Positions 1 to 60,655 of a stretch of 64,000 nucleotides of DNA are shown piece after piece (positions within the stretch are counted from its first letter, which is position 1; every line of letters begins with the position of its first letter). The position numbers and the translations under genes are program-made. The stretch is taken from IMG/VR virus record IMGVR_UViG_3300032007_001727, one strand, 5' to 3'. The DNA comes from a virus (taxonomy: Duplodnaviria > Caudoviricetes). A model generated the notes under the pieces. It was not told the DNA's origin. It worked only from the letters and a program-made list of their open reading frames with translations, and searched no databases.

Positions 1-522
1 TTCCACCCCCCCCCCCCATTTTTCTGTAAACTAACACTTGAGAATGGTTCCGTTGTTGAGTTACAAGGAAGCGGCGAACTGACAAGTACAATGATAGAAC
101 CATATAGATATGACTTTGTCAGTGCTGAAATCGGTGAACTTTGCATAAGCATTGGTGATGGTGCTTTTGTTACATGTTATTTATCAAGTATAACCTTTTC
201 AAATACCGTTACAAGTATTGGTTCTGAGGCTTTTGACCATTGTGAAGGTTTAACGTCCGTAACGATTCCGGACGGTGTCATAACCATTAGTGATTTTGCT
301 TTTAATAATTGCTCTGCAATGACATCTTGTTATCTTGGTAATAATGTCACAACAATTGGTGAATTTTCTTTCGCAAACTGCCCAATCCTAACATCTATAA
401 ATATTCCAAATAGCATTACAAGTATTAGTAATGGTGCTTTCTGTGATTCTAATTCATTGGATGCTGCAAGCACGGCAGCAATATCTGCAATTAATCCAAA
501 TGCATTAAGATGCGACGCATAA
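1..522 (+). CDS. BspA-type leucine-rich-repeat (LRR_5) protein, 5'-truncated by window edge; C12 tract at 6-17
   Basis: Frame 1 is open from base 1 (FHPPPPFFCKLTLENGSVVELQGSGELT...) into the listed ORF 91..522. It has TSIGxxAFxxCxxLTSIxIP repeats and is homologous to 3788..4462 and 59839..60655. Confidence 0.85.
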   Translation, partial: FHPPPPFFCKLTLENGSVVELQGSGELTSTMIEPYRYDFVSAEIGELCISIGDGAFVTCYLSSITFSNTVTSIGSEAFDHCEGLTSVTIPDGVITISDFAFNNCSAMTSCYLGNNVTTIGEFSFANCPILTSINIPNSITSISNGAFCDSNSLDAASTAAISAINPNALRCDA

Positions 523-540
523 ACAATTTAATAAATAATA

Positions 541-570
541 AACGGACCAATTTAATAAGATTGGTCCGTT
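541..570. terminator. Bidirectional intrinsic terminator between convergent genes
   Basis: AACGGACCAAT...ATTGGTCCGTT inverted repeat. Confidence 0.7.
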
Positions 571-578
571 CACTTTAA

Positions 579-2234
579 TTACAGTTTCACGTATCTGAAA
601 ATCTCTTGACTAAGTGCCTTTATTACAATTTCCTCGGCGGTCAATTTCGCTGAAGGCTTGCATGTTTCGGTTGCATCTTCTCCTAGCAATATGGAGATAA
701 TACTCCCATCAAATCCACTGAAGAATGTAATGCCTTCTTCATTTGCCGTTCCTTCATATGTATCCCTTGCGCTTGCGCAGTCCCACCAAATGAATTTGAA
801 GTTATCAACAAACTCTTTTGGAAATACTTCTAGGAGTTCATTTTTAGCCCTATCTATATTACATTCTTGGTCTCTCTGTCTCTGATAGAGTCGTGATGCT
901 GATGGGTTGAATTGCATATCCGATACAACCAACAGTGTTGTCGGAAACTCTTCAAGTGGTATCTGCGGGTTTTCAGTTCTGATTTTGACAATCTCATCAA
1001 TAACTGATTGGAAATTTGTTCCTCCACAAGGTACACCCGGCAAGGAAAGTATGTTATCGCAGAAAGAATCGCTTGGCAATGTGAACGGATATGACTTATT
1101 ATCAAACATCATAATCTTATGATGGAATTCACCCTCATTCAGTTCTGCGAAGAATAATGCCAATGATGTTGCAATGTCTCCACAACATGTATCGCCGACA
1201 ACCGTTCTAGACATTGAACCGCTTGTGTCCAAGGCAACCAACACATTCTCTTTAACCCTTCCGTTCTTTCTCACTTGTTCAACCAATTGCATGAATTGTG
1301 AATCAATGGTATGCTTAAAGGCAAACGGTAGTTTGTTCTTGGTATATCGGCCAATAAAATAATAAGAGTTTGAATTGAGTTTCTTTCTCACTTTTTTTGC
1401 GAGTTCAAACGGATACCCGGTAAACTTTACCGTCGGCTGTTCAATCACCCACTTTTCATATTCGTCAGTGAGGCTGTGCCTTTCCAAGAAATCACCGCTT
1501 AAAAGGTTTGTCAGTGCCCTGCCCGGAATTTTGTTCCAATTCAATGATGCATAGTCCTTGCTGCATAAAATCTTTTGGAAATCATGTGCGGTTCCGCTTG
1601 TTTTCAATTTTGTATAGTCACTATAGGACAATTTGCAGAATTTTGCGAATTGCTTTGCAAGTCTGTTGGTTATTGCTGCCCATTCGGTTTTGCACTTTGA
1701 ATTGCATCTGATTCTTGGCATGAATTTCTTTACCAAATCACAATGAACGTCAGAGAGCAGTCCTTGACTAATCACATTAAAAATGTATTTCTTGTCAATG
1801 ACATTGAGATTATATTTCTCGTCATAGAACATAAGGGTCCAAGGGTCTTTCCAAGACCCCACTATTGGCAAGAGCCAAATGTTATTCTCAAATACGTCCT
1901 TATGCTCCTTTGCAACCCAAAGGAGTCTCTTGAATGACTCATCCCTTGAACCTTGGCCGTTCTGTATGGAATCAGTTGTGTTTTGTGAACTAAGTTTGGT
2001 TTTTCTAGTCACCATTCTAAGGTAGAAAATAAACTTGATGGAAAGTTCACTGTTCTCACCCCATAACGATGCTTGGTCCTCGAATACTTCATTCAATTCC
2101 CTATCACGGTAATTTCCTGCCTTTCCGAATTGGTCAACCAATACAGAATTTGTTGTCGCAAGTGTCTTTGCACCGTTTTCGGTTAAAGTAAATGATGACC
2201 TATTACCAAAAGTCTTCTCCAAAAATTCATTCAT
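579..2234 (-). CDS. DUF2828-like / TROVE-related protein with C-terminal vWA domain
   Basis: TENGA near the N-terminus, GSWKD, KFMPR, MIDAS motif VALDTSGSM, GGTNFQSV, VVSDMQF and GF near the end. Start reassigned to ATG 2234 (MNEFLE), which lies downstream of a Bacteroidota promoter. Confidence 0.75.
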   Translation of the reverse strand: MNEFLEKTFGNRSSFTLTENGAKTLATTNSVLVDQFGKAGNYRDRELNEVFEDQASLWGENSELSIKFIFYLRMVTRKTKLSSQNTTDSIQNGQGSRDESFKRLLWVAKEHKDVFENNIWLLPIVGSWKDPWTLMFYDEKYNLNVIDKKYIFNVISQGLLSDVHCDLVKKFMPRIRCNSKCKTEWAAITNRLAKQFAKFCKLSYSDYTKLKTSGTAHDFQKILCSKDYASLNWNKIPGRALTNLLSGDFLERHSLTDEYEKWVIEQPTVKFTGYPFELAKKVRKKLNSNSYYFIGRYTKNKLPFAFKHTIDSQFMQLVEQVRKNGRVKENVLVALDTSGSMSRTVVGDTCCGDIATSLALFFAELNEGEFHHKIMMFDNKSYPFTLPSDSFCDNILSLPGVPCGGTNFQSVIDEIVKIRTENPQIPLEEFPTTLLVVSDMQFNPSASRLYQRQRDQECNIDRAKNELLEVFPKEFVDNFKFIWWDCASARDTYEGTANEEGITFFSGFDGSIISILLGEDATETCKPSAKLTAEEIVIKALSQEIFRYVKL

Positions 2235-2261
2235 TGCTTTTTCTTTTTTAGGATTTTGGTG

Positions 2262-2293
2262 CAAAGATATATAAAAAAAATGAGAAAAACAAA
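2262..2293 (-). promoter_or_regulatory. Bacteroidota sigmaA-type promoter (-33 TTTG, -7 TATCTTTG)
   Basis: Minus strand TTTG-N20-TATCTTTG upstream of ATG 2234. Confidence 0.75.
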
Positions 2294-2328
2294 TTTTAAT
2301 GATATTTATTTTAAAAATATATGCATAT

Positions 2329-2724
2329 ATGAATGAAAATAGAATAACACAGATAATAGAAGAGGAAATCAGAAGACTCGTCAATGAAGATTTGATGGGT
2401 GAGAAGAATAAACTCAACAGAGGTGAGCCGAAGAAGAAACTTCTCCATAAAATGAGAAAGGGAAAGGCGAAGATTGAGGACTTGGAACAGTATAGGAAGG
2501 ATAATAGGGTCATTCCGGATGCCGAGGCAGATGCCATCAGAAACAAGATTGACGTGGAGAAGACAAACATGGCTGCAATTGCTAGGATATTGTTCCCACA
2601 CCATACAGACGAGGGGGCACAGTCACAGTTCAGAAAGATTATTAATGGTGAAAGACCTATGACTAGAAGGATTGCCCTTAAGATTGATAAGTTGATTGCT
2701 AGCGGAAAGATTGCCGTTAAGTAA
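2329..2724 (+). CDS. Hypothetical protein, possible C-terminal HTH; begins with leader-like MNENRITQIIEEEIRRLVNE
   Basis: ORF track 2299..2724; ATG 2329 follows the ATATTTAT motif at 2302. Confidence 0.65.
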   Translation: MNENRITQIIEEEIRRLVNEDLMGEKNKLNRGEPKKKLLHKMRKGKAKIEDLEQYRKDNRVIPDAEADAIRNKIDVEKTNMAAIARILFPHHTDEGAQSQFRKIINGERPMTRRIALKIDKLIASGKIAVK

Positions 2725-2758
2725 ATGGCAATGATGTACCATAAAAAATGGAGAGGCT

Positions 2759-3211
2759 TTATTCCTCTCCATTGTTATTATTATAATATTCCATAACTCT
2801 CTTGTGATAGTCTATTGAGCATTTTCTCCAAGACTTTGTGTAGAACCCGCAGTTCCAGCATTTGATTGCTTTCTCGATGTCGTGTTCCGAATTGAAATGT
2901 TCTTGTAATAATATAAACATTTCCTTTGATTTTTCTGCATCATATCTATCTTGATAGGTATAACGCTTGTCTGATTTTTTCCTTTGCAGGATTTGGTTAC
3001 ACTCCCTTACCGCTATTTTTGTCATTTGGAGTATACCGGCACAATCGCTAGATGGATTATGTGCATTTGGGTTTCCTTTACTTTCAACTTGTATGATGGC
3101 ATTCATTACCCTTGTCCAATCATACGCTTCGCTTGTCTGTGCATTGATGTTCAAGAAGAACAATGACATAATGCACGTTAAAATTAATCTTTTAATTGTT
3201 CTCATCATCAT
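2759..3211 (-). CDS. Lytic transglycosylase (SLT/lysozyme-like) with N-terminal signal peptide
   Basis: AIIQVESKGNPNA (catalytic ES), AGILQMT motif, hydrophobic N-terminus. Confidence 0.7.
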   Translation of the reverse strand: MMMRTIKRLILTCIMSLFFLNINAQTSEAYDWTRVMNAIIQVESKGNPNAHNPSSDCAGILQMTKIAVRECNQILQRKKSDKRYTYQDRYDAEKSKEMFILLQEHFNSEHDIEKAIKCWNCGFYTKSWRKCSIDYHKRVMEYYNNNNGEE

Positions 3212-3242
3212 TATTTTTAGATGCGACATTCAGAATGATGCA

Positions 3243-3638: not shown

Positions 3639-3696
3639 TGATTCCAAATACTTTTATATATAAATATTGGAACGATGATTTTTTGAATTTTTGGTG

Positions 3697-3728
3697 CAAA
3701 AGTATATAAAAAATCTGAGAATAACAAG
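3697..3728 (-). promoter_or_regulatory. Bacteroidota-type promoter (-7 TACTTTTG, -33 CTTG)
   Basis: Same 20-nt spacing as the promoters at 2262, 7115 and 54792. Confidence 0.55.
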
Positions 3729-3787
3729 ATATTCATAATATTTATTGTTAAAATAACTTAATTTAAATCTTTAAAAAACAAATAATT

Positions 3788-4462
3788 ATGAAGTACGTTA
3801 AAGAATTTGCAGATAACGCAGCCTATACTGCTTATACTGCCACGGACTATCCAAAGCCAAACGTATCACTTTGTGTTGCTGAGGGTGATGTCCACTATAA
3901 TCCTACCCCCCCCCCATTATGTAAGTTAACCCTTAAGAATGGTGAAGTTGTGAGACTTGAAGGCAGTGGAACACTAACAAGTGCAATGACAAGTCCATAT
4001 AGCGCAACTTGTGTTAGTGCTGAAATAGGTAAGCCTTGCACAAGCATTGGCAATCGGGCTTTCTATCTATGTACTAGTTTATCAAGCATAACAATCCCGG
4101 ACAGTGTTACAAGCATTGGTGATGTTGCTTTCCATGATTGTCGTAGTTTATCGAGTATAACAATTCCGGACAGTGTTACAAGCATTGGTAGTAGTGCTTT
4201 CTATGCTTGTTCCGGTTTAACAAGCATAAACATTCCAAGTGGTGTTACAAGCATTGGTGATTATGCTTTCCGAGATTGTTTTAGTTTATCAGCAATAACC
4301 TCGTTTGCCACAACAGCACCAAGAATATATAATTATACTTTCCAAAATGTTAAGACCGGTGGTACTCTTACGGTTCCAATTGGTAGCAGCGGCTATAACA
4401 CTTGGATGGGAACGGGTACTTATTACCTAGGTTATTATAATTGGACAAAGGTCGAACAATAA
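3788..4462 (+). CDS. BspA-type LRR protein, intact (ON state); C10 tract at 3906-3915
   Basis: Leader MKYVKEFA...NVSLCVAEGDVHYNPTPPPLCKLTL, followed by SITIPDSVTSIGxxAFxxC repeats. Confidence 0.9.
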   Translation: MKYVKEFADNAAYTAYTATDYPKPNVSLCVAEGDVHYNPTPPPLCKLTLKNGEVVRLEGSGTLTSAMTSPYSATCVSAEIGKPCTSIGNRAFYLCTSLSSITIPDSVTSIGDVAFHDCRSLSSITIPDSVTSIGSSAFYACSGLTSINIPSGVTSIGDYAFRDCFSLSAITSFATTAPRIYNYTFQNVKTGGTLTVPIGSSGYNTWMGTGTYYLGYYNWTKVEQ

Positions 4463-4468
4463 CATAAA

Positions 4469-4544: not shown

Positions 4545-7043
4545 CTAGTTTATTGATATTGTGTTATTTGAACAAGTTGCGTGGAAGACATACCCGTTTG
4601 GATAATCATTCGATAGCATTAATTCGGTTAATCCATCCTCCATTTCCGTTTCAATCAGCCTTATAATTGGCCTTGCCCCCATTTCCTTGTCTTCAATCGC
4701 CTTTGAATATATATAATCTACAACATCATCTGTATATTCAATGTTATAATTAATATTATTTAATTTATTATTAAATTTATTAATCTCTAACTTAACTATA
4801 TCTTTTAAATTATTGTCTGATAAGTTATTAAAATATATTATCTTGTTAATTCTATTAAGGAATTCCGGTGTAAATTTCCTCTTAAGTTCCTTGCTGATAA
4901 TGTCTTTCTTGTTTGAATCCTCATTTGGGTTAAAGCCGAGACCGTTTCCCAATTCTGACGCTCTCCTAGCACCTATGTTTGAAGTCATTATGAATATGCA
5001 GTTATGACAATCGATTAGGTTTCCGTTATTTTCCGTCAGCCTTCCTTCGTCGAACACTTGAAGGAAAACATTATAGATGGATTCATCGGCTTTTTCAATC
5101 TCATCCAACAACACAACCGAATAAGGCTTCTGCTTAATTGCGTTGGTAAGAACGCCACCGTCATCATATCCGATATACCCGGCACTAGCACCATAAAGTT
5201 TGCTTACGGAATTCTTCTCCGAATATTCAGACATATCGATTCTAATGAGAGATTTCTCGCTTCCGTAAATCTCTTCGGCTATCTTCTTTGCCAATAGAGA
5301 CTTTCCGACACCGGTTGGTCCAAGTAACAAGAACGTACCTAGACAAGATGACTTGTCACTTAATCCGACCTTGTTTCTCTTTATTACCTTGCACACATCA
5401 TTGATTGCATCGTCTTGGCCGACAATATACTTCTTCAAGACCTCATCTATCTTTGCAATCCTTTCCTTTTCAGACATCGATAACTTGCTTACCGGTATGT
5501 TGACCATATCTGAAACGGTTTCAGCCACATCGTCCTCAGAAACAATAATCGGGTTGGAAGAGTCGTGATTTCTAGACCTTTTATATTCCGCAACATCACT
5601 TGCCAATACGTTGCCTTCAGCATTTAGGGTGTCTATTTTCTCAAAATCACCATTATTCAACGCATCATCTTTCTCTCGGTTTATTTCTCTTATTCGTTTC
5701 TTGATATTCTTTATTAACTGAGGTTCATCGTTTTTCATTGAAATGCTTGCACCGACCAAGTCTATGACATCAAATGCTGAATCCGGCAAGGCTCTGTCCG
5801 TAATATACCTTTCAGCCAAGTCAACCGCCTTTTTAATAACGCTGCGGTCATATATTACATTATGAAAGTCTTCATAATAATATTTTGCCTTGTCTATTAT
5901 TTCAACAGTATCAGCATTGCTTGATGGTTCAATCGTCAGTTTTTGGAATTTCCTAGACAAAGATGAATTGTTTTCTATGGTGTTTCTGTAATCCTTGAAT
6001 GTGGTGGCACATATTACCTTTACGGTTCCGTCTGTCAGAATATCACCGACCATCCCGCTAATGTCAGCATCCTTTTCTTTTCCACCACCCCTTAACACGG
6101 TATGAATATCATCAATAAACAAGATATATTTCTTTGATTTCTTTAATTCCGTGAAGAGACCGTTGACTCTTTCTTCGAACATACCCCTAAAATGAGTTCC
6201 GCTAACCAATGTCATCGGGTTTAACATTACGATTTCCTTTCCTTCCAACTGTTCCGGAACCTCCCCGTCGATAATCTTTTTGGCTAACTTATATACCATG
6301 GATGTCTTTCCGCATCCTCCGACACCAACCAATATCACATTGTTCTTTTTCCTGCGGCATAAGACTTTTATCATTTCGGTGAACTCTCTGTCACGCCCGA
6401 TTATATCGTCAGTCTTGCCCTCTGAAACTAATTTGCTGATATTAATTGTAAATTGTTGTATGTATTCTCCTTGCGGTATTGATGATATCATCTTCGGATT
6501 CACTTGACTCTTTAATTCCATTTGTGCCATCTTGTTTGGTTTTATTTTCTTTGGTTGTGCCTTATTCTCTTTTTTTGTTGGGTTTGACGGGTTACATTTA
6601 TCGAATATGAATTTATATTCTAACCTAAATTTACCGAATATATTATATTCCGAGAACCCGTTTTCTTTATTCAGTACCGCCAAAAGTACGTGCTCACTGC
6701 CTATATTTCTAGACTTTAGTTTATCGGCTTCAACCCTAGCACATTCAATTGCCTTTATCAAGTCATCGCTGTATGGATAAATTCCATGGTTACCCTTTAG
6801 TTGGGGCTTTGTGTACTTGTCCAAGACCGAAACATAGATTTTCCTCAATTCTTCAATATTTTCAGACATTAAGCAATTTTCAAGAATCATGTTTGCGTGA
6901 CAGTTCTTGTTATCCAATATAGATAAAATCAAATACTCAAGCGTTAAAATGTCTGTAGGGAACTCATCATATAAAGTAGAGGTCATATAACCAATAACTT
7001 CTTCAAGTTCCAATGTGTAATCTTCTCTTTTATATTCATTCAT
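4545..7043 (-). CDS. clpC: Clp/Hsp100 AAA+ ATPase (ClpC-type)
   Basis: Clp N-domain (EHVLLA), IIGRDRE, RRKKNN, Walker A GVGGCGKT and GPTGVGKS, RIDMSEY, LLDEIEKA, LGF loop, PEFLNRI, MGARP. Confidence 0.9.
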   Translation of the reverse strand: MNEYKREDYTLELEEVIGYMTSTLYDEFPTDILTLEYLILSILDNKNCHANMILENCLMSENIEELRKIYVSVLDKYTKPQLKGNHGIYPYSDDLIKAIECARVEADKLKSRNIGSEHVLLAVLNKENGFSEYNIFGKFRLEYKFIFDKCNPSNPTKKENKAQPKKIKPNKMAQMELKSQVNPKMISSIPQGEYIQQFTINISKLVSEGKTDDIIGRDREFTEMIKVLCRRKKNNVILVGVGGCGKTSMVYKLAKKIIDGEVPEQLEGKEIVMLNPMTLVSGTHFRGMFEERVNGLFTELKKSKKYILFIDDIHTVLRGGGKEKDADISGMVGDILTDGTVKVICATTFKDYRNTIENNSSLSRKFQKLTIEPSSNADTVEIIDKAKYYYEDFHNVIYDRSVIKKAVDLAERYITDRALPDSAFDVIDLVGASISMKNDEPQLIKNIKKRIREINREKDDALNNGDFEKIDTLNAEGNVLASDVAEYKRSRNHDSSNPIIVSEDDVAETVSDMVNIPVSKLSMSEKERIAKIDEVLKKYIVGQDDAINDVCKVIKRNKVGLSDKSSCLGTFLLLGPTGVGKSLLAKKIAEEIYGSEKSLIRIDMSEYSEKNSVSKLYGASAGYIGYDDGGVLTNAIKQKPYSVVLLDEIEKADESIYNVFLQVFDEGRLTENNGNLIDCHNCIFIMTSNIGARRASELGNGLGFNPNEDSNKKDIISKELKRKFTPEFLNRINKIIYFNNLSDNNLKDIVKLEINKFNNKLNNINYNIEYTDDVVDYIYSKAIEDKEMGARPIIRLIETEMEDGLTELMLSNDYPNGYVFHATCSNNTISIN

Positions 7044-12706: not shown

Positions 12707-15700
12707 ATGGGTAGGACTGTTGCAATAAATCAAGATAAACTAAAAATGCTTAAGGAGATTGTGGTTGATAATCATAATATTATCAGCCACAAAAACGTTT
12801 ATGTTAATGAGGCTTCTCCGGAAGCAAGTGAATTTGAACTTTGCATTGAAGACGGCGACCAACCTTTAGGCGGTGGTTATGTTCATGTTAAAGAGGGATT
12901 GCAAAAGTTGAGACCAAATGTCAATGAAACCACGTTTGAGACATGGTTCGGGAATTCCGTGTTGAAGGATGAAAACGGTATGCCGTTGAAGATGTATCAC
13001 GGAACCGGCGAGGATTTCAATGCCTTCGACAAGAAGACCATTGGAAGGAGCGGCGCATACGAGGGATATGGCTTTAATTTCACCCCATTCAAGTCTAGGG
13101 CGATGGGATATAATTCCAAAAACGTCATAGAGGCATATTTGAAGGTCGAGAACCCAATGACATCAAAAACTCATAAGATAACCTTAAGGCAGTTGATGTC
13201 CATAATAAGCGAATTGGACAAGGGTAAGCCGTTTACTGACACGATAGTTGCGGCGTATGAGCCTGCGAGATATAACGAGAATTGGGATGCCGCATACTAT
13301 AGAAGGGCATTGCCTACGGCAGCGAGGGCAATATATGACTATAACAAGGAATGTGGCTACGGTGATGCGGGACTATATGCCGAACTCTGTATTAACGGGC
13401 AAGCCGATAAACTAGAGACCATCAGCGCATTCGAGAAGATGGGATACGATGGTGCAATATTCTATGACAACGATGATAGGATAAACACCGTCGTGGTGTT
13501 CGAGCCTAACCAAATCAAGAGAACCACAAACAAGACGTTCAATCCCAATTCAGACATAATGGATGAGGATAATGCAATCAACGAAGGATATTGCGGTTCC
13601 AAACTCAAATACATAGACCTAAGTGACGTAGGACTCGTTAAGTATGAATGGTACTTTGACGAGGACGAATACAATGAATGGCTTGCCGACAATGAGTTGA
13701 CTGACTCTGAGGAGACTAGGCATGAATACTATGTCAATGAGGTCACTTATGAGGTGGAATATTGCGATAATTACAGTCAACACACAATGGACGTAGACCA
13801 AAATGTGTCTTACAGTGACCTTGAAGAGTTGTTCGGAGAGAATATGGCAGAGAAAATATTGTCAAACTGTATTAAATACGGAGAGGGTAAATTCGAGACC
13901 TTTGAAATGTATGAGGACTCTGACTATGATGTGAACAACCCGCAAGAACTTAATGATATTGCAGTCAAGTTGTTCTCACACGGAGAATACTATAAAGACT
14001 GCCGTGGTTTCATTCTCACAAACGGAGTTGTAATATACACGCCAAGCGAGCATAATGAAATTACCATATTGAATAACGTAAACGATAAGTTTGATTTCGT
14101 TAGAATGGGTAACATTAGGGTTTTGCCAAATTCAATTAATATTTACACAGAACCGACATATGAGCAAGAACTTGTATTGAGGGATGTGATTGATTCTTAT
14201 TCGGATGATGAGTTATTCTTGGATATTTGCAATAAAGATGATTGCTGTGGCGTTAGATATGACCACCCAAATTGGAGGTATGTCCTAGGTGAGATTGAAC
14301 GATATTATTCAGAAGGGATTAGACCACAAGGAAACCAATACTTTGAGTCAAAGAACAACCATAAGGAAACCCTTAATGAATCACAAGAATCAAAGTCAAT
14401 TTCAGCAGCAAAAAGTCTTGTCATGCAAAGGCTTGGTTATAACGAGCAGCAAGCAGATGAATTTGTAAGAATCAAACTCAGAAACGACTTGCCAATCTTG
14501 AGGTCACCACAAGGCTCCAAGTTCATTCTTGGTGTGACAAGAATGTTCTGTGACGGTGAAATTAGAACTGCAAACGAAATTAGCAATTTGAATTCCACTC
14601 TTAAACTTGTCTCATCAGATGCACATATAAATGAGTATGATAGAAACCTAAATGGCTTGTCTTGTCAAGACTTGATTCAAAGGTTTGCAAAGGCGATGAG
14701 CAATAACCTTGAAACAGAAAAATCAGAGATTGAACGGATGGTGTTTGACACACCGTCAAACTATGAAATTGTTAGGATAGATACGTTCAAGGATGCGACA
14801 AGATATGGAAGATACACATCTTGGTGTGTTATCCATGACAAGGGGATGTTTGACAGTTATACAAGTGACGGTACAAACCAATTTTATTTCTGTCTAAGAC
14901 ATGGGTTTGAAAATGTTAAAAAACAGCCTAGTGAAGGTTGTCCCTTGGATGAATATGGCTTGTCAATGATTGCTGTAAGTGTCAACGAAAATGGAATGTT
15001 GAATACTTGTACTTGCAGATGGAACCATGACAATGGTGCAAACGATTCTGTTATGACGGCAAAAGAGTTGAGTCAACTCATTGGTATGAACTTCTTTGAA
15101 GTGTTCAAGCCAAACGGCAAATGGCAAGAGTTATTGAACGATGCAATGCAAAGGCTTGCAAACGGTGAACAACCTCAAGATGTGTTTGATTGGTGTGGTG
15201 ATTTCAACGAAGGTTTTGCAGCAGTTGAACTTAACGATAAGTGTAATTTCATTGACAAGAATGGTAACTATTTAAGTAAGTGGTGGTTTGATAATTGCGG
15301 TGATTTCCATGAAGGTTTTGCAAGAGTTAGACTCAACGATAATTGGAATTATGTTAACAAGAGTGGTAACTATTTAAGTGAACAGTGGCTTGATTGGTGT
15401 GATGATTTCAATGAAGGTTTTGGGAAAGTTTGCCTTAATGGCAAATATAATTATATTGACAAGAGTGGTAACTATTTAAGTAAGCGGTGGTTTGATGATT
15501 GCGGTGATTTCTATGTAGGTTTTGCGATAGTTGTACTTAATGGAGAATATTACCGCATTGATAAAAACGGAAATTTATTAATGGATGAGTCGAAGAATAA
15601 CAAGAAGGTATTAGTGTCTGAGGAGCAATTGATGAAACTTAATGAGTCACAAGAGTCAAAATCAATTTCCGCTGCAAAAAGGCTTGTCATGCAAAGGCTT

Positions 15701-18424
15701 GGCTATGACGAGCAACAAGCAGATGAGTTTGTAAGGGTAAAACTCAGAAATGATATTCCTGCCCTAAGTGAACCAAAACCATCAAAATTCATTCTTGGTG
15801 CTGCGAGAATGTATTGTGATGGTCAATTAACTAATTCGAGAACCATTAACGACTTGAACTCTACGCTTGAACTTGTGTCCTCTGATACTCACATTAATGA
15901 GTATGACAGAAACCTTAACGGGTTGTCAGCACAGCAACTCATAGACCGCTTTGCAAAAGTAATGAATAATAATCTTGAAGCAGAGAAGGGTGAGGTTGAG
16001 AAAATGACATTCAACAATACTTCTGATTATCAGATTGTTAGAATTGATTCATTTAAGGAAGCGAAAAGATATGGAAAATACACATCTTGGTGTGTCACAC
16101 ACAATAAAAGAATGTTTGACAGTTACACATGTGACGGGATTAACCAATTCTACTTCTGTTTGAAGCCTAACTTTGAAACCATTAAAAGAATCAAAGGTGA
16201 AACCTATCCGTCAGATGAGTATGGCTTGTCAATGATTGCTGTCTCAGTTGATGATAATGGTTGGCTTCACACTTGCACTTGCCGTTGGAATCATGGTGAT
16301 AACAATGACGGGGCTTGCAATGACAAGTTCATCAAGAATATGAAGGGGTTGGCACAGTTCTTTGGGTTCAACCCATTTGAAGTGTTCAAACCAAACGGCA
16401 AGTGGCAAGAATTATTGAACACTGTAACGCAAAGGATTGCCAATGGTGAACGGCCGCAAGATGTATTTGATGAGTGTTTGGGTTTCTGTGAAGGCTTTTC
16501 AAGGGTTGTACTCAATGATAGATATAATTATATTGACAAGAGCGGCACCATTATAAGCAAACAATGGTTTGATTGGTGCAGTGATTTCCATGAAGGGTTT
16601 GCAAAAGTTAAACTTAACAACAAATATAATTATGTTGACGAGAACGGCAACATCTTGAGCAAACAGTGGTTTGAATTTTGTGCTGATTTCAAAGAAGGTT
16701 TTGGGGTGGTTGGACTCAACGATAGATTTAATCATATTGACAAGAGTGGTAACATTATAAGTAAGCAGTGGTTTGATTGGTGCTATAGTTTCGATAATGG
16801 CTTTGCGATAGTTCTACTTAACAAGAAATATAATCATATTGGAAAGAGCGGTAGTATTTTAAGCAAACAATGGTTTAATGGTTGTGATAATTTCAATGAA
16901 GGTTTTGCAACTGTCATACTCAATGGTAAATACAATTTCATTGACAAGAACGGAAACTATTTAAGTGACCAATGGTTTGATTGGTGTGGTGATTTCCATG
17001 AAGGTTTCGCAAAAGTTCTCCTTAATAGCAAATTTAATTTCATTGACAAGAGTGGCAACTATTTAAGTAAACAATGGTTTGATGGTTGTCGGGATTTCAA
17101 AGAAGGTTTTGCAGCAGTTGAACTCGACGGCAAGGAATATAAAATTGATAAAAATGGAAATTTATCATTGCTTGAGTCGAAGAACAACAAGAAGATATTA
17201 GTGTCTGAGGGACAATTGGTAAGACTTAAGGAGAATTCAGAGTTTGAGGTTGACAGTTCGGAGATAGACTTATCGTCATTCAAGAAGAAACATGAGTTAG
17301 TTCCAAATATTTGGAAACCAAATGGGAAATTAAACTCTAGGGTTAGATTAAAGTTATTGGATATTGCAGATGATTTTTGGCATTTCGTCAATCTTACTTG
17401 GGTCAAACCAAAGAGTATAATTCTGACCGGTTCTATCTGTAATTTCAATTGGTCGCAATATTCGGATATTGATTTGCATCTGATTGTTGATTTCAATGAA
17501 ATTGACGAAAAGACAGAATTTGTTAAAAATTATCTTGATTCGAAGAAAAATGAATGGAACAACGAGCACGACAATTTGAATATAATGGGTTTCAATGTTG
17601 AGTTGTATGTGCAAGATATTGATGAAGAATCAGAGTTAAGCAGTGTATATGACTTGGAAACCGACGAGTGGATAAAAGAACCGAATCCGGAGGATATTCA
17701 CCCGATAGGGTTGAACAAGTTTAATATAAAGAAAAAGTCTGCTGAAATAATGACCATAATCGATGATATGTATGATTCATTGTCCTCAACTGATGATTTG
17801 CATAAGATAGAACAGATTTCAGACGATGCCGACTATCTTTGGAGCAAGATAAAGAACATGCGGAAGCAAAGCCTTGAACAAGACGGTGAAATGGGTAGCG
17901 GAAACATTGTATATAAGTATATGCGCAGAAAAGGCTATTTGGATAAACTGTGGGACTTGAGGACAATCTGTTACGACAAGGTGAATTCAATTGACGAAGG
18001 TGTACAAGCAAAATTGCATTCATTATGTGAAAATGAATCGATAAAAAGGTATTTGACATCACTTAAAGCAAATATAATTAATGAAGAATGGGTCGGAGAC
18101 GGGAATGCCTCACATAACCCATACAAAAAACATTGGGATGCTGAGAGAAAGGCATTGAAGGATTTTGTCTCAAACTATGGTCAACTGATGCAGTCCAAGG
18201 AAAACGGAAAACTTTATAAGTGCTACTATGATGCCACGCTTTCTCAGTTAATCGGGTTTAACTACTGTATCTGTGTTCAATGGGATAGTGTTGAAATGAA
18301 GCCTAAAAGTACCTTGTACATTAGGGCTTGTGACAAGTTTACCTCAAATATCAAGCAAGTGCAGTTTGATACACGAGGAAAGGACAATACCTATGGAACT
18401 CAAGACGATTTAAGAGTTAATTAA
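12707..18424 (+). CDS. 1905-aa multidomain (polyvalent-type) protein: ART-PolyVal-like domain, duplicated 'YTSWCV' module + WG repeats, Pol-beta nucleotidyltransferase-like domain
   Basis: WFGNS..DENG.P..MYHGT..GFNFT..AYLKVENP..GYDG..VVFEPNQIK; two ESQESKSISAAK modules; FxEGFAxVxLNxKxNxIDKxG repeats; GSICNFNWSQYSDIDLHLIVD. Confidence 0.8.
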   Translation: MGRTVAINQDKLKMLKEIVVDNHNIISHKNVYVNEASPEASEFELCIEDGDQPLGGGYVHVKEGLQKLRPNVNETTFETWFGNSVLKDENGMPLKMYHGTGEDFNAFDKKTIGRSGAYEGYGFNFTPFKSRAMGYNSKNVIEAYLKVENPMTSKTHKITLRQLMSIISELDKGKPFTDTIVAAYEPARYNENWDAAYYRRALPTAARAIYDYNKECGYGDAGLYAELCINGQADKLETISAFEKMGYDGAIFYDNDDRINTVVVFEPNQIKRTTNKTFNPNSDIMDEDNAINEGYCGSKLKYIDLSDVGLVKYEWYFDEDEYNEWLADNELTDSEETRHEYYVNEVTYEVEYCDNYSQHTMDVDQNVSYSDLEELFGENMAEKILSNCIKYGEGKFETFEMYEDSDYDVNNPQELNDIAVKLFSHGEYYKDCRGFILTNGVVIYTPSEHNEITILNNVNDKFDFVRMGNIRVLPNSINIYTEPTYEQELVLRDVIDSYSDDELFLDICNKDDCCGVRYDHPNWRYVLGEIERYYSEGIRPQGNQYFESKNNHKETLNESQESKSISAAKSLVMQRLGYNEQQADEFVRIKLRNDLPILRSPQGSKFILGVTRMFCDGEIRTANEISNLNSTLKLVSSDAHINEYDRNLNGLSCQDLIQRFAKAMSNNLETEKSEIERMVFDTPSNYEIVRIDTFKDATRYGRYTSWCVIHDKGMFDSYTSDGTNQFYFCLRHGFENVKKQPSEGCPLDEYGLSMIAVSVNENGMLNTCTCRWNHDNGANDSVMTAKELSQLIGMNFFEVFKPNGKWQELLNDAMQRLANGEQPQDVFDWCGDFNEGFAAVELNDKCNFIDKNGNYLSKWWFDNCGDFHEGFARVRLNDNWNYVNKSGNYLSEQWLDWCDDFNEGFGKVCLNGKYNYIDKSGNYLSKRWFDDCGDFYVGFAIVVLNGEYYRIDKNGNLLMDESKNNKKVLVSEEQLMKLNESQESKSISAAKRLVMQRLGYDEQQADEFVRVKLRNDIPALSEPKPSKFILGAARMYCDGQLTNSRTINDLNSTLELVSSDTHINEYDRNLNGLSAQQLIDRFAKVMNNNLEAEKGEVEKMTFNNTSDYQIVRIDSFKEAKRYGKYTSWCVTHNKRMFDSYTCDGINQFYFCLKPNFETIKRIKGETYPSDEYGLSMIAVSVDDNGWLHTCTCRWNHGDNNDGACNDKFIKNMKGLAQFFGFNPFEVFKPNGKWQELLNTVTQRIANGERPQDVFDECLGFCEGFSRVVLNDRYNYIDKSGTIISKQWFDWCSDFHEGFAKVKLNNKYNYVDENGNILSKQWFEFCADFKEGFGVVGLNDRFNHIDKSGNIISKQWFDWCYSFDNGFAIVLLNKKYNHIGKSGSILSKQWFNGCDNFNEGFATVILNGKYNFIDKNGNYLSDQWFDWCGDFHEGFAKVLLNSKFNFIDKSGNYLSKQWFDGCRDFKEGFAAVELDGKEYKIDKNGNLSLLESKNNKKILVSEGQLVRLKENSEFEVDSSEIDLSSFKKKHELVPNIWKPNGKLNSRVRLKLLDIADDFWHFVNLTWVKPKSIILTGSICNFNWSQYSDIDLHLIVDFNEIDEKTEFVKNYLDSKKNEWNNEHDNLNIMGFNVELYVQDIDEESELSSVYDLETDEWIKEPNPEDIHPIGLNKFNIKKKSAEIMTIIDDMYDSLSSTDDLHKIEQISDDADYLWSKIKNMRKQSLEQDGEMGSGNIVYKYMRRKGYLDKLWDLRTICYDKVNSIDEGVQAKLHSLCENESIKRYLTSLKANIINEEWVGDGNASHNPYKKHWDAERKALKDFVSNYGQLMQSKENGKLYKCYYDATLSQLIGFNYCICVQWDSVEMKPKSTLYIRACDKFTSNIKQVQFDTRGKDNTYGTQDDLRVN
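14378..17170 (+). repeat. Internal tandem duplication of [ESQESKSISAAK module + WG-repeat array] (about 14378-15580 and 15644-17170)
   Basis: Near-identical protein and DNA starts at 14378 and 15644; repeats of about 22 aa (WFDxCxDFxEGFA). Confidence 0.85.
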
Positions 18425-25776: not shown

Positions 25777-28700
25777 ATGGCAAAAAGAAAATATACCGTC
25801 TTCCAAGCATTGGATAGGGCAATCACCGGTAATTGGGGCAAGCAAGATGCGTTGTCTTCGCACATCAACTCATATGACATGAGCAATAACGGTGATAAGG
25901 TTATCTATAGGACAGACAACAAGGAAGACTACCTTAATAAGAAGTTGGAACTTCAGCAGAACAAGTACCTTAGGGACAGATGGGTTAAGGCGGACGTGAA
26001 CTTGTCCGTAAGTGCATATTCCGGACTTAACAACATTAAGTTAATGTATCGTGATGCGGACTTGATGGATGCGTTTCCGGAAATAGGTGCGGCATTGGAC
26101 ATAGTTTCAGAAGAGTCTTGCATAAGCGACAGTTCCGGCAATTTGGTCAATATATACTCAAAGTCCGACAGAATAAAGCGAATACTTGAGGATTTGTTCG
26201 TAAACCGTTTGAACATTCAACTCACGGCACCTATGATAATTCGTGCCATGTGCAAATACGGAAACCAATTCATGCTTTTGGATATTGACAACCGCAATGG
26301 TGTCAAGGGATGGAAGCAACTCCCGGTGTTCAATGTTGAGAGGATTGAGAATGGTATTCAGAACCCGTATGGAACCGGTGGCATGTCTGTTTCGGTGAAC
26401 CAAGCGAACACAAATGACGTTGACATGTCCACACAGTTTATATGGTTGGATGACAACAATTCTCAGATACCGTTCAGAGATTGGCAAATCGCACATTTCC
26501 GGCTACTTAATAATTCCTTATACCTACCGTATGGGTGTTTGGTTGGTGATACTAGGGTTGAAACTGAATTTGGTTATAAGGAAATGTCCAATATAAACAT
26601 TGGTGATAAAGTGTGGACGTTTAACCTTAATTCTCAGAAAAGAGAGTTAGGCACTGTTTCTATGTTTATGCATAAAGGTGAAAAGGATGTTTATAAAGTT
26701 TCAACGCTTCATAATGAAATTGAAGGGACTGAAGACCATAAATTATTAACATATGACGGGAGTGATTTAGTATATAAAGAAATCAAAGAGATTAAAATTG
26801 GTGATTTACTCATTGTTGATAATTCTCATGACAAGTGTGATAATAAAATAAAAATTGATAAAACGTATCCATCTGAAAAAGAGGCGAATTTAAATAAATC
26901 AATGACTTGGTGGACGGATTATATTCATTTGATACCGGATTATGTCGATGAAGATTTCGCTAAATTTTTTGGCTTTATGGTTGGTGATGGGTGGGTTACA
27001 CAGTCAAAATATGTATATTTCGCCACTGGTGAATATGAGAAATTTAACATAGAATTTTACAAATATCTTGAGAAGATTACCGGACATAAAGTGTCGTTTA
27101 GAAGACCATTCATTAATGAAAATCATAATTATGAATATTCATGTTGTTTGGTTTGCTCAAAATGTTTGGCATTAATAATGCATAGGATGGGCTTCATTGA
27201 TGGATTTGATAAAAAAAGAGTACCTAGTTGGGTTTTTTCATCTAGTGATATAATTAAAAAATCATTTCTTGATGGACTCATGATTTCAGATGGCAGTTAT
27301 AATATTGATAAGTACAATATTTTAAGGTGTTCTTTAGAAATGGCCAACGAACAATTAATAAAAGACATCAAAACATTAGTTCAATCTTTAGGATATAAAT
27401 CTTCAAAAATATCAAATAGAAATAGGGTTGGAAAATGTAGCGCCTTGAAAAATGGATACAATATAATAACTAAAAACACCTCTTATTATTTCTATTTCTA
27501 TGAAAGTTACAATAAACAAGAAAAGAAATATGATTTGTCTAATAGATTAGAAAATGGTTTTAAGACAGAAAAGGTGAAAAAAATAGAATATGTTGGTAAA
27601 AAACAAACATATGATTTCACTGTAAATAATGAGAATAGTAATTTTTTCGCAAATGGTATTGTAACGCACAATTGTTCTTATCTTAATGCTGCAAGAAGAC
27701 ATTGGCGTATGTTGAGCCTCATGGAGGACATGATGTTGATTTATCGTCTTGAGCGCTCTGTCGAAAGAAGGGTGTATAAGATTTATGTTGGTGCCATTGA
27801 TGACGCGGACGTGCAAGCATATGTCGAGCAGATTGCAAATCAGTTCAAGAGAACACCAATCATTGACCCGATGACCGGGCAGATTGATTTGAGAAAGAAC
27901 ATCTTATCGGTCGATAACGATGTCTTTCTTCCGGTGAGAGACGAGAATGCTAGCACACCTATTGACACACTTTCAGCGGGTCAGAACATGACGGCTTTGG
28001 ATGACATAAAGTTTGTTCAGAACAAGGTGCTTACCGCGTTGAGGATACCAAAGACCTTCTTGAACTTCGAGGAACCGGCCGGAGAGGGGAAAAACCTTGC
28101 ATTGATGGATGTTAGGTTCACTAGGACGGTGAACAGAATACAGCAAGCGTTTCTGATGGAATTGACAAAGGTTGCGTCAATACACTTGTTCTTGTTGGGC
28201 TTCAACGATGAACTCAATAATTTTGCATTGTCGATGAATAATCCGTCCACGCAAGCGGAGGGTTTGGAAATCGATAACATTCAGAAGAAGATTGACGCGG
28301 TTAGGGATGCTGTGTCAGACCCCGGAAACGGAATACCGGTTATGTCACAGACTCGCGCATTAAAGCAGATTATGAAGTGGTCTGAAAAGGAAATCAAGGA
28401 GAACTTTGAGGAGATTCGTCTTGAAAAGGGTATTGCGGCAGAGTTGGAGAAAACGACACAGATTATCAAGAAGACCGGAATCTTTGATACAGTTGACAGA
28501 ATCTATGGCGAACCCGGTGCGGAATACGCCGATGATGTGCAAGGACAAGGAGAAATGGGCGGAGGACCAAGTATGGGTGGCGGTCCAAGTGGTGGCATGG
28601 GAGCACCGCCTCCACCACCTCCAACCGGAGAAATCGGCGAAGACTTGGGTAATATGGGAAGCCCGATGGACAATGGAAACGGTGGTGAGATTTCCGGTGC

Positions 28701-28905
28701 CGAGGCTTCAATTCCTACCTCTCAAATGGGACAAGAGGGTATGCCTCCAATGGAATCCATATACAAGAACGGAAAGCCGTTGATTAATGAGAGCGTGCTT
28801 AAGCGTGCGGAAGTGTATGACAAGGAATCGCTTATGATAAACGAGGAATTCGACAAGATGATTAAGGCCCTTGAACAATTCTCCTTGGAGGATGTCAAAG
28901 AATAA
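25777..28905 (+). CDS. Portal protein (T4 gp20-like) interrupted by an intein
   Basis: PEIGAALDIVSEE, MEDMMLIYRLERS.ERRVY, PIDTLSAG, ALRIPK, RFTRTVNRIQ. Confidence 0.9.
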   Translation: MAKRKYTVFQALDRAITGNWGKQDALSSHINSYDMSNNGDKVIYRTDNKEDYLNKKLELQQNKYLRDRWVKADVNLSVSAYSGLNNIKLMYRDADLMDAFPEIGAALDIVSEESCISDSSGNLVNIYSKSDRIKRILEDLFVNRLNIQLTAPMIIRAMCKYGNQFMLLDIDNRNGVKGWKQLPVFNVERIENGIQNPYGTGGMSVSVNQANTNDVDMSTQFIWLDDNNSQIPFRDWQIAHFRLLNNSLYLPYGCLVGDTRVETEFGYKEMSNINIGDKVWTFNLNSQKRELGTVSMFMHKGEKDVYKVSTLHNEIEGTEDHKLLTYDGSDLVYKEIKEIKIGDLLIVDNSHDKCDNKIKIDKTYPSEKEANLNKSMTWWTDYIHLIPDYVDEDFAKFFGFMVGDGWVTQSKYVYFATGEYEKFNIEFYKYLEKITGHKVSFRRPFINENHNYEYSCCLVCSKCLALIMHRMGFIDGFDKKRVPSWVFSSSDIIKKSFLDGLMISDGSYNIDKYNILRCSLEMANEQLIKDIKTLVQSLGYKSSKISNRNRVGKCSALKNGYNIITKNTSYYFYFYESYNKQEKKYDLSNRLENGFKTEKVKKIEYVGKKQTYDFTVNNENSNFFANGIVTHNCSYLNAARRHWRMLSLMEDMMLIYRLERSVERRVYKIYVGAIDDADVQAYVEQIANQFKRTPIIDPMTGQIDLRKNILSVDNDVFLPVRDENASTPIDTLSAGQNMTALDDIKFVQNKVLTALRIPKTFLNFEEPAGEGKNLALMDVRFTRTVNRIQQAFLMELTKVASIHLFLLGFNDELNNFALSMNNPSTQAEGLEIDNIQKKIDAVRDAVSDPGNGIPVMSQTRALKQIMKWSEKEIKENFEEIRLEKGIAAELEKTTQIIKKTGIFDTVDRIYGEPGAEYADDVQGQGEMGGGPSMGGGPSGGMGAPPPPPPTGEIGEDLGNMGSPMDNGNGGEISGAEASIPTSQMGQEGMPPMESIYKNGKPLINESVLKRAEVYDKESLMINEEFDKMIKALEQFSLEDVKE
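26536..27672 (+). mobile_element. Intein (379 aa) with LAGLIDADG homing endonuclease
   Basis: PYG|CLVGDT...TEDHK...FFGFMVGDGW...FLDGLMISDGS...YDFTV...NGIVTHN|C; more AT-rich than the flanks. Confidence 0.93.
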
Positions 28906-54773: not shown

Positions 54774-54791
54774 AATTTTTTCTCTTTTTTG

Positions 54792-58216: not shown

Positions 58217-58221
58217 AAAAT

Positions 58222-58250
58222 AAATAAGCCTCAGAAATGAGGCTTATTTT
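58222..58250 (+). terminator. Intrinsic terminator
   Basis: AAATAAGCCTCA-GAAA-TGAGGCTTATTT. Confidence 0.8.
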
Positions 58251-58287
58251 GGTTTTAAGCGATATTTATATGTAAAAAATAGGTAAC

Positions 58288-59781: not shown

Positions 59782-59802
59782 ATTTAAATCACAGAAAATG
59801 AG

Positions 59803-59832
59803 AACGGCAACACAATTAAGTGCTGCCGTTTT
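59803..59832. terminator. Bidirectional terminator
   Basis: AACGGCAACAC...GTGCTGCCGTT. Confidence 0.65.
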
Positions 59833-59838
59833 TTATTG

Positions 59839-60655
59839 TTATTGTTCAACCTTGGTCCAACCATACTTACCTAAGTAATAATCACCACTTCCCATCCAAA
59901 CGTCATAGCCGCTGCTACCTTGTGGAACATAGAGAGTACCATCGGACCCGACATTGCCGAAAGTAGTATTTGCTATTGTTGGTGCTGTTGCTGCAAGTGA
60001 AGTTATTGCTGATAAACTAGAACAACCATTGAAGGCATTTTGACCAATGTTTGTAACACCACTTGGAATGTTTATACTTGATAAACTACGACAACCACTG
60101 AAAGTATAATTACCAATGATTGTAACGCTGTCCGGAATTGTTATACTTGATAAACTAGAACAATAAGCGAAAACATTATTATCAATGTTTGTAACACCAC
60201 TTGGTATTGTTATGCTTGATAAATTAGAACAACTAGCGAAAACATTATTACCAATGCTTGTAACACTGTCCGGAATTGTTATACTTGATAAACCAGTACA
60301 TTGAAGGAAAGCACTATTACCAATGTTTGTAATACCATTTGGTATTGTTATGCTTGATAAACTAGAACAATAACCGAAAGCCACCGCACCAATACTTGTG
60401 CAAAGTGTACCAACTTCAACACTGACACAAGTTGCGCTGTAACCGCTTATCATTGCTCTTGTAAGTTCTCCACTACCCTCGATATCAACAACCTCACCGT
60501 TTCGCAAAGTTAATTTACAGAAGAAGGGGGGGGGGGGTAGGATTGTAATGCACATCATCCTCAGCAACACAAAGTGATACATTTGGTTTTGGGTAGTCCG
60601 TGGCAACGTATGCTGTATAATCAGCATGTGTTGCAAATTCTTTAACGTACTTCAT
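59839..60655 (-). CDS. BspA-type LRR protein frameshifted (OFF) at a C12 tract (G12 at 60526-60537)
   Basis: True start ATG 60655 gives MKYVKEFATHADYTAYVATDYPKPNVSLCVAEDDVHYNPTPPPLLL* (TAA 60517-60515). C11 or C14 would restore the frame into FFCKLTLRNGEVV plus the LRRs. Confidence 0.85.

Follow-up and report, generated by a model that had tools for sequence, protein, structure and literature searches.

Poly-C tracts with the anatomy of contingency loci in a family of tagged LRR genes of a rumen-type megaphage

The 64-kb stretch of DNA analysed here (64,000 nucleotides; hereafter, the window) belongs to a rumen-type megaphage of ~366 kb that is T4-like in its portal, major head protein and terminase. 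As a preliminary description of the sequence had proposed, three dispersed paralogues encoding BspA-type LRR proteins lie in it: all three ORFs match the PF13306 LRR_5 profile, with E values of 1e-30 to 1e-53 and scores of 106-180 bits against a cut-off of 27.7. Copy 2 (positions 3788-4462, plus strand; LRR_5 E 4.5e-33) is read in frame, that is, it is ON, and encodes a protein of 224 aa, P0001, which consists of a leader (residues 1-39), a T-PPP-L linker, four LRR units and a C-terminal cap (...WTKVEQ). Copy 3, on the minus strand, is split. Its leader ORF (60515-60655, ATG at 60655; P0224, 46 aa) reads PPPLLL and then TAA, an early stop caused by a run of twelve C. The LRR body (59839-60555; LRR_5 E 3e-53) lies in a shifted frame of 238 open codons, with an internal ATG (MCITILPPPPFFCKLTL...), six LRR units and an intact C-terminal cap, and is called as 238 aa in a 366,366-bp ENA sister contig. 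Both the leader (46 codons) and the body of copy 3 are thus open, and the tract is the sole lesion of the gene.

Copy 1 (1-522, plus strand; LRR_5 E 1.8e-30) has its 5' end cut by the window start. In the gene calls of the sister contig its leader ORF begins 112 nt before the window and runs to a TAA at 32-34 (48 aa), and the LRR body, which lies in frame 1 with CKLTL from position 25 and a callable ORF at 91-522, is a separate ORF of 143 aa. These split calls indicate that copy 1 is out of frame at its C12, and that C10 or C13 would be needed to restore it. Since the family's C-terminal cap is missing, copy 1 may be a decaying remnant and not a switchable gene. Copies 1-3 are found in the same state in both large contigs, which are perhaps non-independent assemblies. 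The leader that the preliminary description recognized in both complete copies (MKYVKEFA...NVSLCVAE.DVHYNP) is identical at 34 of 39 residues between copies 2 and 3. The dS of 0.82 and dN/dS of 0.105 for this pair mark the two leaders as old paralogues under constraint, with no recent gene conversion between them; for the bodies, dN/dS is 0.57 between copies 2 and 3 and 0.43-0.47 for the pairs with copy 1.

In every copy a pure run of C lies at one and the same junction, between the 39-aa leader and the LRR body (codons 40-44 of the paralogues). The positions are exactly those first described: C12 at 6-17 (plus strand) in copy 1, C10 at 3906-3915 (plus strand), read as ACC CCC CCC CCA, in copy 2, and C12 at 60526-60537 (minus strand; G12 on the plus strand) in copy 3, where C11 or C14 would turn the gene ON. 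Long C runs are otherwise absent from the window, as had been stated; indeed, these three tracts are its only C/G runs of seven or more, and by our own arithmetic ~0.006 runs of ten or more would be expected by chance at 38% GC. Contingency loci carry an uninterrupted tract of about eight or more units in the 5' part of the ORF, and here C12, C10 and C12 start from codon 40 of genes of ~210 aa in total (copy 1), 224 aa (copy 2) and, if in frame, ~270 aa (copy 3). A change of one unit in such a locus leads to early truncation, as seen in the stubs of 48 aa (copy 1) and 46 aa (copy 3).

The tracts are also kept against codon usage and neutral decay. CCC is the rarest proline codon of this phage, with 9.4% of the 499 proline codons in the 38 long ORFs of the window, and the control, six prolines in a row (PPPPPP) encoded by the portal gene, is written in mixed codons (CCG CCT CCA CCA CCT CCA). 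At the dS measured for the leaders of copies 2 and 3, the tract is still pure in each. Tract purity could also persist through slippage dynamics without selection. In every copy a stop appears soon after the tract, within 3-5 codons in each of the two shifted frames. We considered whether the TGTAA that follows the tract is a dedicated trap, and rejected it as a special feature, because conserved Cys-Lys codons (TGT AAR) account for it and relatives also use TGC. The quick stops are therefore due in part to these family-wide codons.

Both complete copies are preceded, ~50 nt upstream of their starts, by the promoter-like motif ATATTTAT (3738-3745, plus strand, for copy 2; 60703-60710, minus strand, for copy 3). 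The motif occurs 28 times in the window against 7.4 expected, and 18 of the 28 occurrences precede a gene start on their own strand by no more than 120 nt, those of the portal gene and of both complete LRR copies among them; the shorter TATTTAT is also found upstream of the major head protein gene. The motif had been called late, a word that is best read as presumptive. Another sequence, ATAACTTAATT, was rejected as a general promoter motif (5 occurrences against 3.8 expected) and is merely common to copies 2 and 3.

The AF2 model of P0001 has a pLDDT of 94, and a Foldseek search against the PDB matched it to surface LRR proteins of the BspA/TpLRR type (6mlx, 4gt6, 4h09 and 4fs7; E 1e-5 to 1e-4, probability 1.00). 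The predicted body is thus a BspA-like LRR solenoid; fold searches of BFVD and the PDB returned generic LRR proteins only. Neither a bacterial-type secretion signal nor a surface anchor is apparent: the N-terminus is a polar, folded tag and not a hydrophobic signal peptide, and no anchor domain was detected by Pfam in the LRR proteins. The variability of the repeats between copies, noted before, was borne out by entropy, which reaches 3.1-3.5 bits at the xx of IGxxAFxxC and stays below 1.3 bits at the residues that form the core scaffold (I, T, G, A, F, C and L). The match to surface LRR folds, together with the entropy peak at xx, suggests that the LRR proteins are binding modules.

The leader is far more widespread than the three genes. 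A profile search with it returned 2,878 cluster representatives, and in nearly all of the best 150 of these it begins at residue 1. Among 105 representatives scanned for what follows it, 55 carried LRR_5, two Lcl_C and one SusF/SusE, and ~47 had no Pfam domain. This is the layout of a docking domain, with one N-terminal module set before different C-terminal binding payloads, and it upholds the earlier suggestion that the leader is a shared module. The AF2 model predicts a folded beta-alpha-beta-beta unit of ~39 aa. From its distribution across sequences, the tag is a modular N-terminal domain, and through it the proteins would be held on the virion as putative accessory adhesins or receptor-binding proteins. 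No tag was found in cultured phages, where a tblastn search of GenBank phages matched LRR bodies only. With 2,878 clusters, this abundant and unannotated tag is a candidate virion-docking module.

The family has at least six genes in the phage genome, namely the three in the window and P0005, P0009 and P0226 elsewhere. Members are scattered among replication and housekeeping genes; P0009 has as its neighbours a gp25-like baseplate gene and a glycoside hydrolase of 1,608 aa. This neighbourhood and the motif in common with the portal gene are contextual hints of a place in the virion. One comparison between assemblies bears directly on switching. P0225, a protein of 48 aa on a 53,754-bp JGI contig, has a leader identical to that of P0005, which is 369 aa long and ON in the 366,366-bp ENA contig. 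The tail of P0225, HSSVS followed by a stop, is the sole reading of the P-F-F-C-K-L-T region after the loss of one C, which turns CCA TTC TTC TGT AAG TTA A into CAT TCT TCT GTA AGT TAA. Judged from the protein tails, one paralogue thus appears to be ON in one assembly and a tract-shifted OFF stub in another. A body ORF matching P0225 was not found, and when an ON form of copy 3 and an OFF body of P0005 were looked for among proteins, the only near-identical one returned was P0005 itself.

A further copy, L106, comes from a Scottish cattle-rumen scaffold of a different study. Its C10 is out of frame, the body stays open for more than 250 codons beyond it, and the tract is again the sole lesion; the gene would be in frame at C9 or C12. 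Distant relatives (50-60% identity), on the other hand, write these prolines as CCA, CCT or CCG and have no poly-C. Mixed proline codons in relatives had been named beforehand as an observation that would count against switching; they are indeed found in the distant relatives, whereas in the close lineage the tract is kept (L106, C10) and appears to vary in length. The switch thus seems to be a lineage-specific acquisition and not a property of the whole family. In another relative, L018, the leader has truly decayed, with the start codon lost and a frameshift at a T run, showing that gene death does occur in the family. Other searches for relatives gave little: a 5-kb megablast against GenBank phages had no match; an exact 24-mer of the leader was absent from IMG/VR; scans of IMG/VR, JGI metagenomes and GTDB genomes with P0001 found only relatives of up to 65% identity, none with the MKYVKEFA leader; and an IMG/VR scan for C9 or longer followed by TGTAA gave 52 loci, none of the LRR tag family.

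Taken together, these observations support a contingency-locus anatomy for the tracts: their place near the start of the ORF, their purity in the face of codon bias, their unequal lengths among the paralogues and, in copy 3, the absence of any other lesion. The gene plan is a promoter-like motif, the 39-aa tag, a Thr/Ala-Pro3-4 linker encoded by an uninterrupted C9-C13, a BspA-type LRR array and the C-terminal cap. During replication of the phage DNA, slipped-strand mispairing would add or remove a C in the tract and so shift the LRR body into or out of the reading frame of the tag. Each paralogue would then be ON (a tag-LRR fusion) or OFF (a tag stub of 45-48 aa) independently of the others, a lysate would be mixed in genotype, with the subset of the repertoire that is expressed differing from one genotype to another, and the benefit would be bet-hedging. 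We infer that such switching is reversible and of high frequency. The original proposal that the phage stochastically switches its LRR repertoire is supported in part: the contingency anatomy stands, and protein-level evidence suggests that one paralogue is ON in one assembly (P0005) and OFF in another (P0225). With moderate confidence, we favour the reading that the C runs are hypermutable switches which toggle a repertoire of tag-LRR binding proteins at random, as in bacterial contingency genes.

The simplest objection is that the C12 calls are homopolymer miscounts, and that all paralogues are in frame and constitutive. Illumina reads are prone to error at G/C homopolymers of ten or more, and nanopore reads even more so, and the Logan contigs of SRR9008756 and SRR9008757, two runs that contain this phage, break around the LRR genes, short of the tracts. 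Such an artefact seems unlikely to us, since a comparison of runs with ORFs shows several A/T runs of 8-9 within ORFs that stay open, the same OFF states recur in two large contigs, and L106, from an independent study, and P0225, on a JGI contig, are also out of frame. Moreover, unlike what a uniform bias would give, out-of-frame calls fall only at tracts whose required lengths differ (C10/13, C11/14 and C9/12). If the tract lengths are real, the runs could still be a mutational liability without adaptive switching, an ancestral poly-C inherited by a birth-and-death family in which OFF copies are on their way to loss. The cap gone from copy 1 fits this view, as does L018 with its missing start codon and frameshift at a T run. 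We consider it quite improbable, however, because in copy 3 and L106 nothing except the tract is damaged, because stabilizing synonymous changes of CCC to CCA or CCT have not spread despite a dS of 0.4-0.8 among the paralogues and a strong bias against CCC, and because one paralogue appears, at the protein level, both ON and OFF (P0005/P0225).

Full-length proteins might also be made from OFF genes by recoding, if RNA polymerase slips on the C run or if ribosomes slip by +1 or -1 on CCC-C or polyproline. Transcriptional slippage is favoured by long homopolymers and +1 frameshifting is known at CCC-C sites, and the closure of both shifted frames within 3-5 codons would keep the slippage window short. 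The copies would, however, need opposite shifts (+1 nt or -2 in copy 1, -1 nt or +2 in copy 3 and L106), copy 2 is plainly in frame, and A/U runs allow more efficient slippage than rC:dG hybrids do; recoding is therefore very unlikely. The remaining alternative concerns the place of action and is compatible with switching: the tag would serve as a signal for capsid targeting or packaging, and the LRR proteins would be effectors, internal or injected, with host defence proteins as their binding targets. A short N-terminal capsid-targeting sequence, MKTYQEFIAE, is common to the internal proteins of T4; targeting of this type uses a peptide of ~10 aa and cleavage by the prohead protease at L/I-x-E. 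The head of the phage is of the T4 type, its LRR genes are dispersed like morons and lack a signal peptide, and MKYVKEF/MKYLKKFET loosely resembles the T4 sequence. Against this, the tag is predicted to be a folded unit of ~39 aa and not a 10-aa peptide, the other payloads behind it are glycan binders of an extracellular type (Lcl_C and SusF/SusE), and LRRs of this type are known from bacterial surface proteins. We therefore regard an internal role as unlikely, and return to the proposed role of switchable, virion-held binding proteins.

A more far-reaching version of the switching reading, which we offer only tentatively, is that of a virus with Opa-like combinatorial phase variation. At least ten tag-anchored LRR adhesin genes would each have their own poly-C switch where tag and payload meet, bursts would release virions whose progeny display different binding subsets, and OFF genes would still make the tag as a free peptide and perhaps, from internal starts, LRR protein that lacks it, adding a new layer of host-range or niche bet-hedging in gut and rumen megaphages. 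If true, this would extend the logic of contingency loci to the largest gut phages, would offer an explanation for the hoarding of LRR paralogues in such genomes, and would make histograms of tract length in existing metagenomes a direct handle on the switch. It would also matter for annotation: gene callers split tract-bearing genes, so megaphage annotations under-count LRR tag genes.

Phages are known to switch tropism by invertible tail-fibre segments, diversity-generating retroelements and the polyG tracts of Campylobacter phages. In bacteria, the ~11 opa genes of Neisseria are dispersed and have CTCTT repeats where the leader peptide is encoded. The likeness lies in dispersed adhesin paralogues, each with its own tract behind a conserved N-terminal leader, and in combinatorial ON/OFF states; the Opa system, however, is bacterial and has a pentamer and a cleaved signal peptide, whereas the genes described here are viral and have a mononucleotide run encoding a proline linker behind a predicted folded tag. 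Phage tailspikes and secondary receptor-binding proteins have conserved N-terminal anchor domains, such as the docking peptides of Klebsiella phage receptor-binding proteins. They resemble the tag in layout, as a short conserved N-terminal module before interchangeable payloads that bind or act as enzymes. With the BspA/TpLRR proteins of gut bacteria (PF13306; PDB 6mlx, 4gt6 and 4fs7) the phage proteins share the fold, units of ~23 residues and a conserved F..C, but they lack the signal peptide, Ig-like domains and T9SS or cell-wall anchor, and have the phage tag and the ...WTKVEQ cap instead.

The system would be a variant of the phage homopolymer contingency loci already known from Campylobacter phages and from T2/T4. 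In T2 and T4, simple-sequence repeats undergo reversible frameshifts by polymerase slippage, which have been read as bet-hedging (Gomez, Barrick and Waters, bioRxiv 10.1101/2025.10.21.683753). Those loci are mostly short runs (6+) spread over all gene classes, whereas here long runs of C9-C13 are held against codon bias in one family and at a homologous position. Hypermutable polyG tracts have likewise been described in ORFs of Campylobacter Fletchervirus phages (Sorensen et al. 2021, Cell Rep 35:109214; cited in PMC12823448, PMC10877375). There, G/C homopolymers in ORFs shift the frame and give phage populations of mixed phenotype, and host-recognition proteins are thought to be affected. Our case differs in the phylum of the host, in the type of phage (a 366-kb megaphage) and in the proteins, which are unrelated; its tract occupies a single, constant domain junction throughout a family of several paralogues, and its switching is proposed from sequence.

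We found that the only C/G runs of at least 7 nucleotides in the window are three tracts, C12 at 6-17 (+), C10 at 3906-3915 (+) and G12 (C12 on the coding strand) at 60526-60537 (-), next to 26 A and 15 T runs of that length in the same homopolymer scan. All three lie at one homologous position, the junction between leader and body, in genes matching Pfam LRR_5 (BspA type; E 1.8e-30 to 3e-53). Since the calculated expectation for C/G runs of at least 10 in 64 kb at 38% GC is ~0.006, this arrangement cannot be chance. Copy 2 (P0001, 224 aa; 3788-4462, +) reads in a single frame, MKYVKEFADN...DVHYNP-TPPPL-CKLTLKNGEVV.... The leader of copy 3 starts at 60655 and is identical to that of copy 2 at 34 of 39 residues; its ORF of 46 codons ends ...NPTPPPLLL then TAA, and the LRR body lies in another frame, its 238 open codons beginning at an internal ATG (60555), so that C11 or C14 would be in frame. 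The preliminary description had claimed these tract positions and lengths, the absence of other long C runs, a leader common to the complete copies, and that copy 2 is ON and copy 3 OFF; scan and reading frames bear these points out.

Copy 1 is truncated at its 5′ end by the window start. On the sister contig of the same phage, gene calls give it a 48-aa leader ORF (39 aa plus Thr40, the layout of the other copies) that starts 112 nt before the window and ends at position 34, and a separate 143-aa LRR ORF at 91-522. This split indicates that copy 1 is also out of frame at C12, needing C10 or C13. It lacks the family C-terminal cap (TAPTI...GTLxVP.GS.GYD.WM...WTKVEQ), ends in an unrelated tail and may be a remnant. 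Copies 1 and 2 are flanked by genes at 579-2570 (-) and 4545-7043 (-), encoding a Ro/TROVE-like protein (DUF2828/DUF7788, phrog_850 'RNA-binding protein') and a full-length ClpB-like double-AAA+ ATPase. Copy 3 adjoins an HNH/homing-endonuclease-like gene (60742-62016, +; phrog_559; DUF723/CapR), and the sister contig has similar DUF723 genes close to other paralogues too.

P0001 is encoded on contigs of 366,743 and 366,366 bp, and relatives are 300-414 kb contigs from rumen-type metagenomes. Besides the Ro/TROVE-like and ClpB-like proteins, the phage encodes a large terminase, a T4-type major head protein and a T4-type portal (25777-28905, +; Portal_T4, E 6e-84) whose gene is split by an intein that contains a LAGLIDADG homing-endonuclease domain. 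It also encodes a polyvalent protein of 1,905 aa (12707-18424, +), which has an ART-PolyVal ADP-ribosyltransferase domain at the N-terminus together with WG_beta_rep repeats. Three more leader-bearing proteins of this genome lie outside the window: P0009 (287 aa, junction NPIPPPLCKL), whose neighbours are a gp25-like baseplate gene and a gene for a glycoside hydrolase of 1,608 aa, P0005 (369 aa, junction NPAPPPPFFCKL) and P0226 (247 aa, junction NPTPPPLCKL).

The best reading of the tracts is slipped-strand mispairing; the rivals to this proposed switch are miscalled homopolymers, simple gene decay and slippage by RNA polymerase or ribosome (recoding). Among 499 proline codons in the long ORFs of the window, CCC is the least used (9.4%), and a control PPPPPP stretch in the portal gene, starting near 28606, is encoded CCG CCT CCA CCA CCT CCA. 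Half of the synonymous leader sites differ between copies 2 and 3, against very few of the non-synonymous ones (dS 0.82; dN/dS 0.105), which points to old paralogues with leaders under purifying selection and without recent gene conversion; despite this divergence the tract is unbroken in both, and it is the sole lesion in copy 3. Real decay, in contrast, is seen in a relative, where the ATG is lost and a T run is frameshifted. That copy (L018:2340-3202, IMGVR_UViG_3300028805_000076) has ATA where the ATG should be, and its Pro-Phe-Phe junction has T6 rather than T7; its leader is dead, and an intact LRR ORF of 210 aa begins at an internal ATG. A dedicated recoding signal is made less likely by the frameshifts that the copies need, as these run in opposite directions.

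Against a polymorphic tract length, copies 1, 2 and 3 are each in the same state in both large contigs, which may come from the same data; indirect evidence for polymorphism comes from another paralogue. Clustered at 90% identity, the copy 3 stub (P0224) groups with three other proteins, P0226, P0225 (48 aa, from a 53,754-bp JGI contig) and P0227 (45 aa). P0225 is the exact P0005 leader (...GDVYYNPAPPP) followed by HSSVS-stop. Loss of one C turns P-F-F-C-K-L-T of P0005 into H-S-S-V-S-stop under exactly one codon assignment, CCA TTC TTC TGT AAG TTA A to CAT TCT TCT GTA AGT TAA. From these protein tails, one assembly appears to carry this paralogue ON (probably C13) and another to carry it OFF (C12); a protein search found no body ORF for P0225. 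P0227 is encoded on L106, a scaffold of 920 nt from a study of the cattle rumen; its DNA reads GCT, C10, then ATATGTAAA, and is out of frame (C9 or C12 needed) with >250 open codons behind the tract.

P0001 belongs to a very large family: of 8,000 scored candidates, 7,973 match it at E ≤0.001. Relatives at 50-60% identity encode the junction as CCA CCT, CCA CCA CCA and similar, with no C run >3, and no family member was found among IMG/VR matches to the pattern C9+ then TGTAA; together these results suggest that poly-C is a trait of the close lineage of this phage. Mixed proline codons and fixed tract length in relatives had been named beforehand as evidence against switching; the mixed codons were found, in these distant relatives only. 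Another family member carries a G8 run at a different leader position (L003:3955-3962, encoding ...YVNGGGIALPNVS). Unrelated IMG/VR phage contigs form three groups with identical flanks around poly-C of differing length, C9-C11 (L054, L056, L059, L072, L074, L079, L080, L085, L093, L094, L096, L099, L105), C12 versus C17 (L078 versus L092) and C9 versus C10 (L063, L064, L071, L077, L091, L098), and may represent other phage homopolymer switches.

A profile built from 25 leaders matched 2,878 cluster representatives at E ≤0.001 (826 at ≤1e-10), beginning at residue 1 in nearly all of the best 150. Among 105 leader-bearing representatives of at least 140 aa, Pfam finds LRR_5 in 55, Lcl_C in 2, SusF/SusE in 1 and no domain in ~47; several payload classes can be told apart by eye, e.g. 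GHEYVDLGLPSGTLW... and DYSKDYLTF.... In the AlphaFold model of P0001 (pLDDT 94) the leader forms a small beta-alpha-beta-beta unit before the Pro linker, and the rest matches BspA/TpLRR-type proteins. A tblastn search found no tag in GenBank phages. The data agree with the proposed shared module as far as modularity goes, suggesting a tag with swappable payloads. The LRR body has dN/dS 0.43-0.57, which fits a constrained scaffold with variable binding positions; as noted beforehand, the xx positions of IGxxAFxxC vary (entropy 3.1-3.5 bits versus <1.3 bits at the core I, T, G, A, F, C and L).

The motif ATATTTAT, also noted beforehand ahead of both complete copies, is confirmed there and lies upstream of the portal gene too; a shorter TATTTAT precedes the major head protein gene. 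Its 28 sites in the window (e.g. 3738, 25733, 33705, 37505, 58262 and 60703) exceed the 7.4±2.7 expected 3.8-fold, and 18 lie ≤120 nt, mostly 25-55 nt, upstream of same-strand gene starts, making it a candidate phage promoter element. Given this motif, the adhesin/lectin-type payloads and the baseplate neighbourhood of P0009, the leader may dock to the virion.

In the proposed switch, slipped-strand mispairing at C9-C13 during phage replication would toggle each paralogue, independently of the others, between ON, as a tag-LRR fusion, and OFF, as a stub of 45-48 aa. An OFF gene could still give a tag-less LRR protein, since the LRR frame of copy 3 and of L106 stays open, ATGs included, across most of the leader. 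Because virion proteins are pooled within the infected cell, a new variant's phenotype would be seen only in the next infection cycle. The anatomy of the tract-bearing family is well supported and its tracts as a switch moderately so; an adhesin-type role of the LRR proteins is putative.

Switching by homopolymers in phage genes is an established finding in Campylobacter Fletchervirus phages, in the account of Sorensen et al. 2021, and has been claimed more broadly for T2 and T4 (bioRxiv 10.1101/2025.10.21.683753). New here would be the setting, an uncultured rumen megaphage, the fixed position of the tract, where a widespread N-terminal tag meets its payload, and the scale, with a set of paralogues that recalls Neisseria opa.
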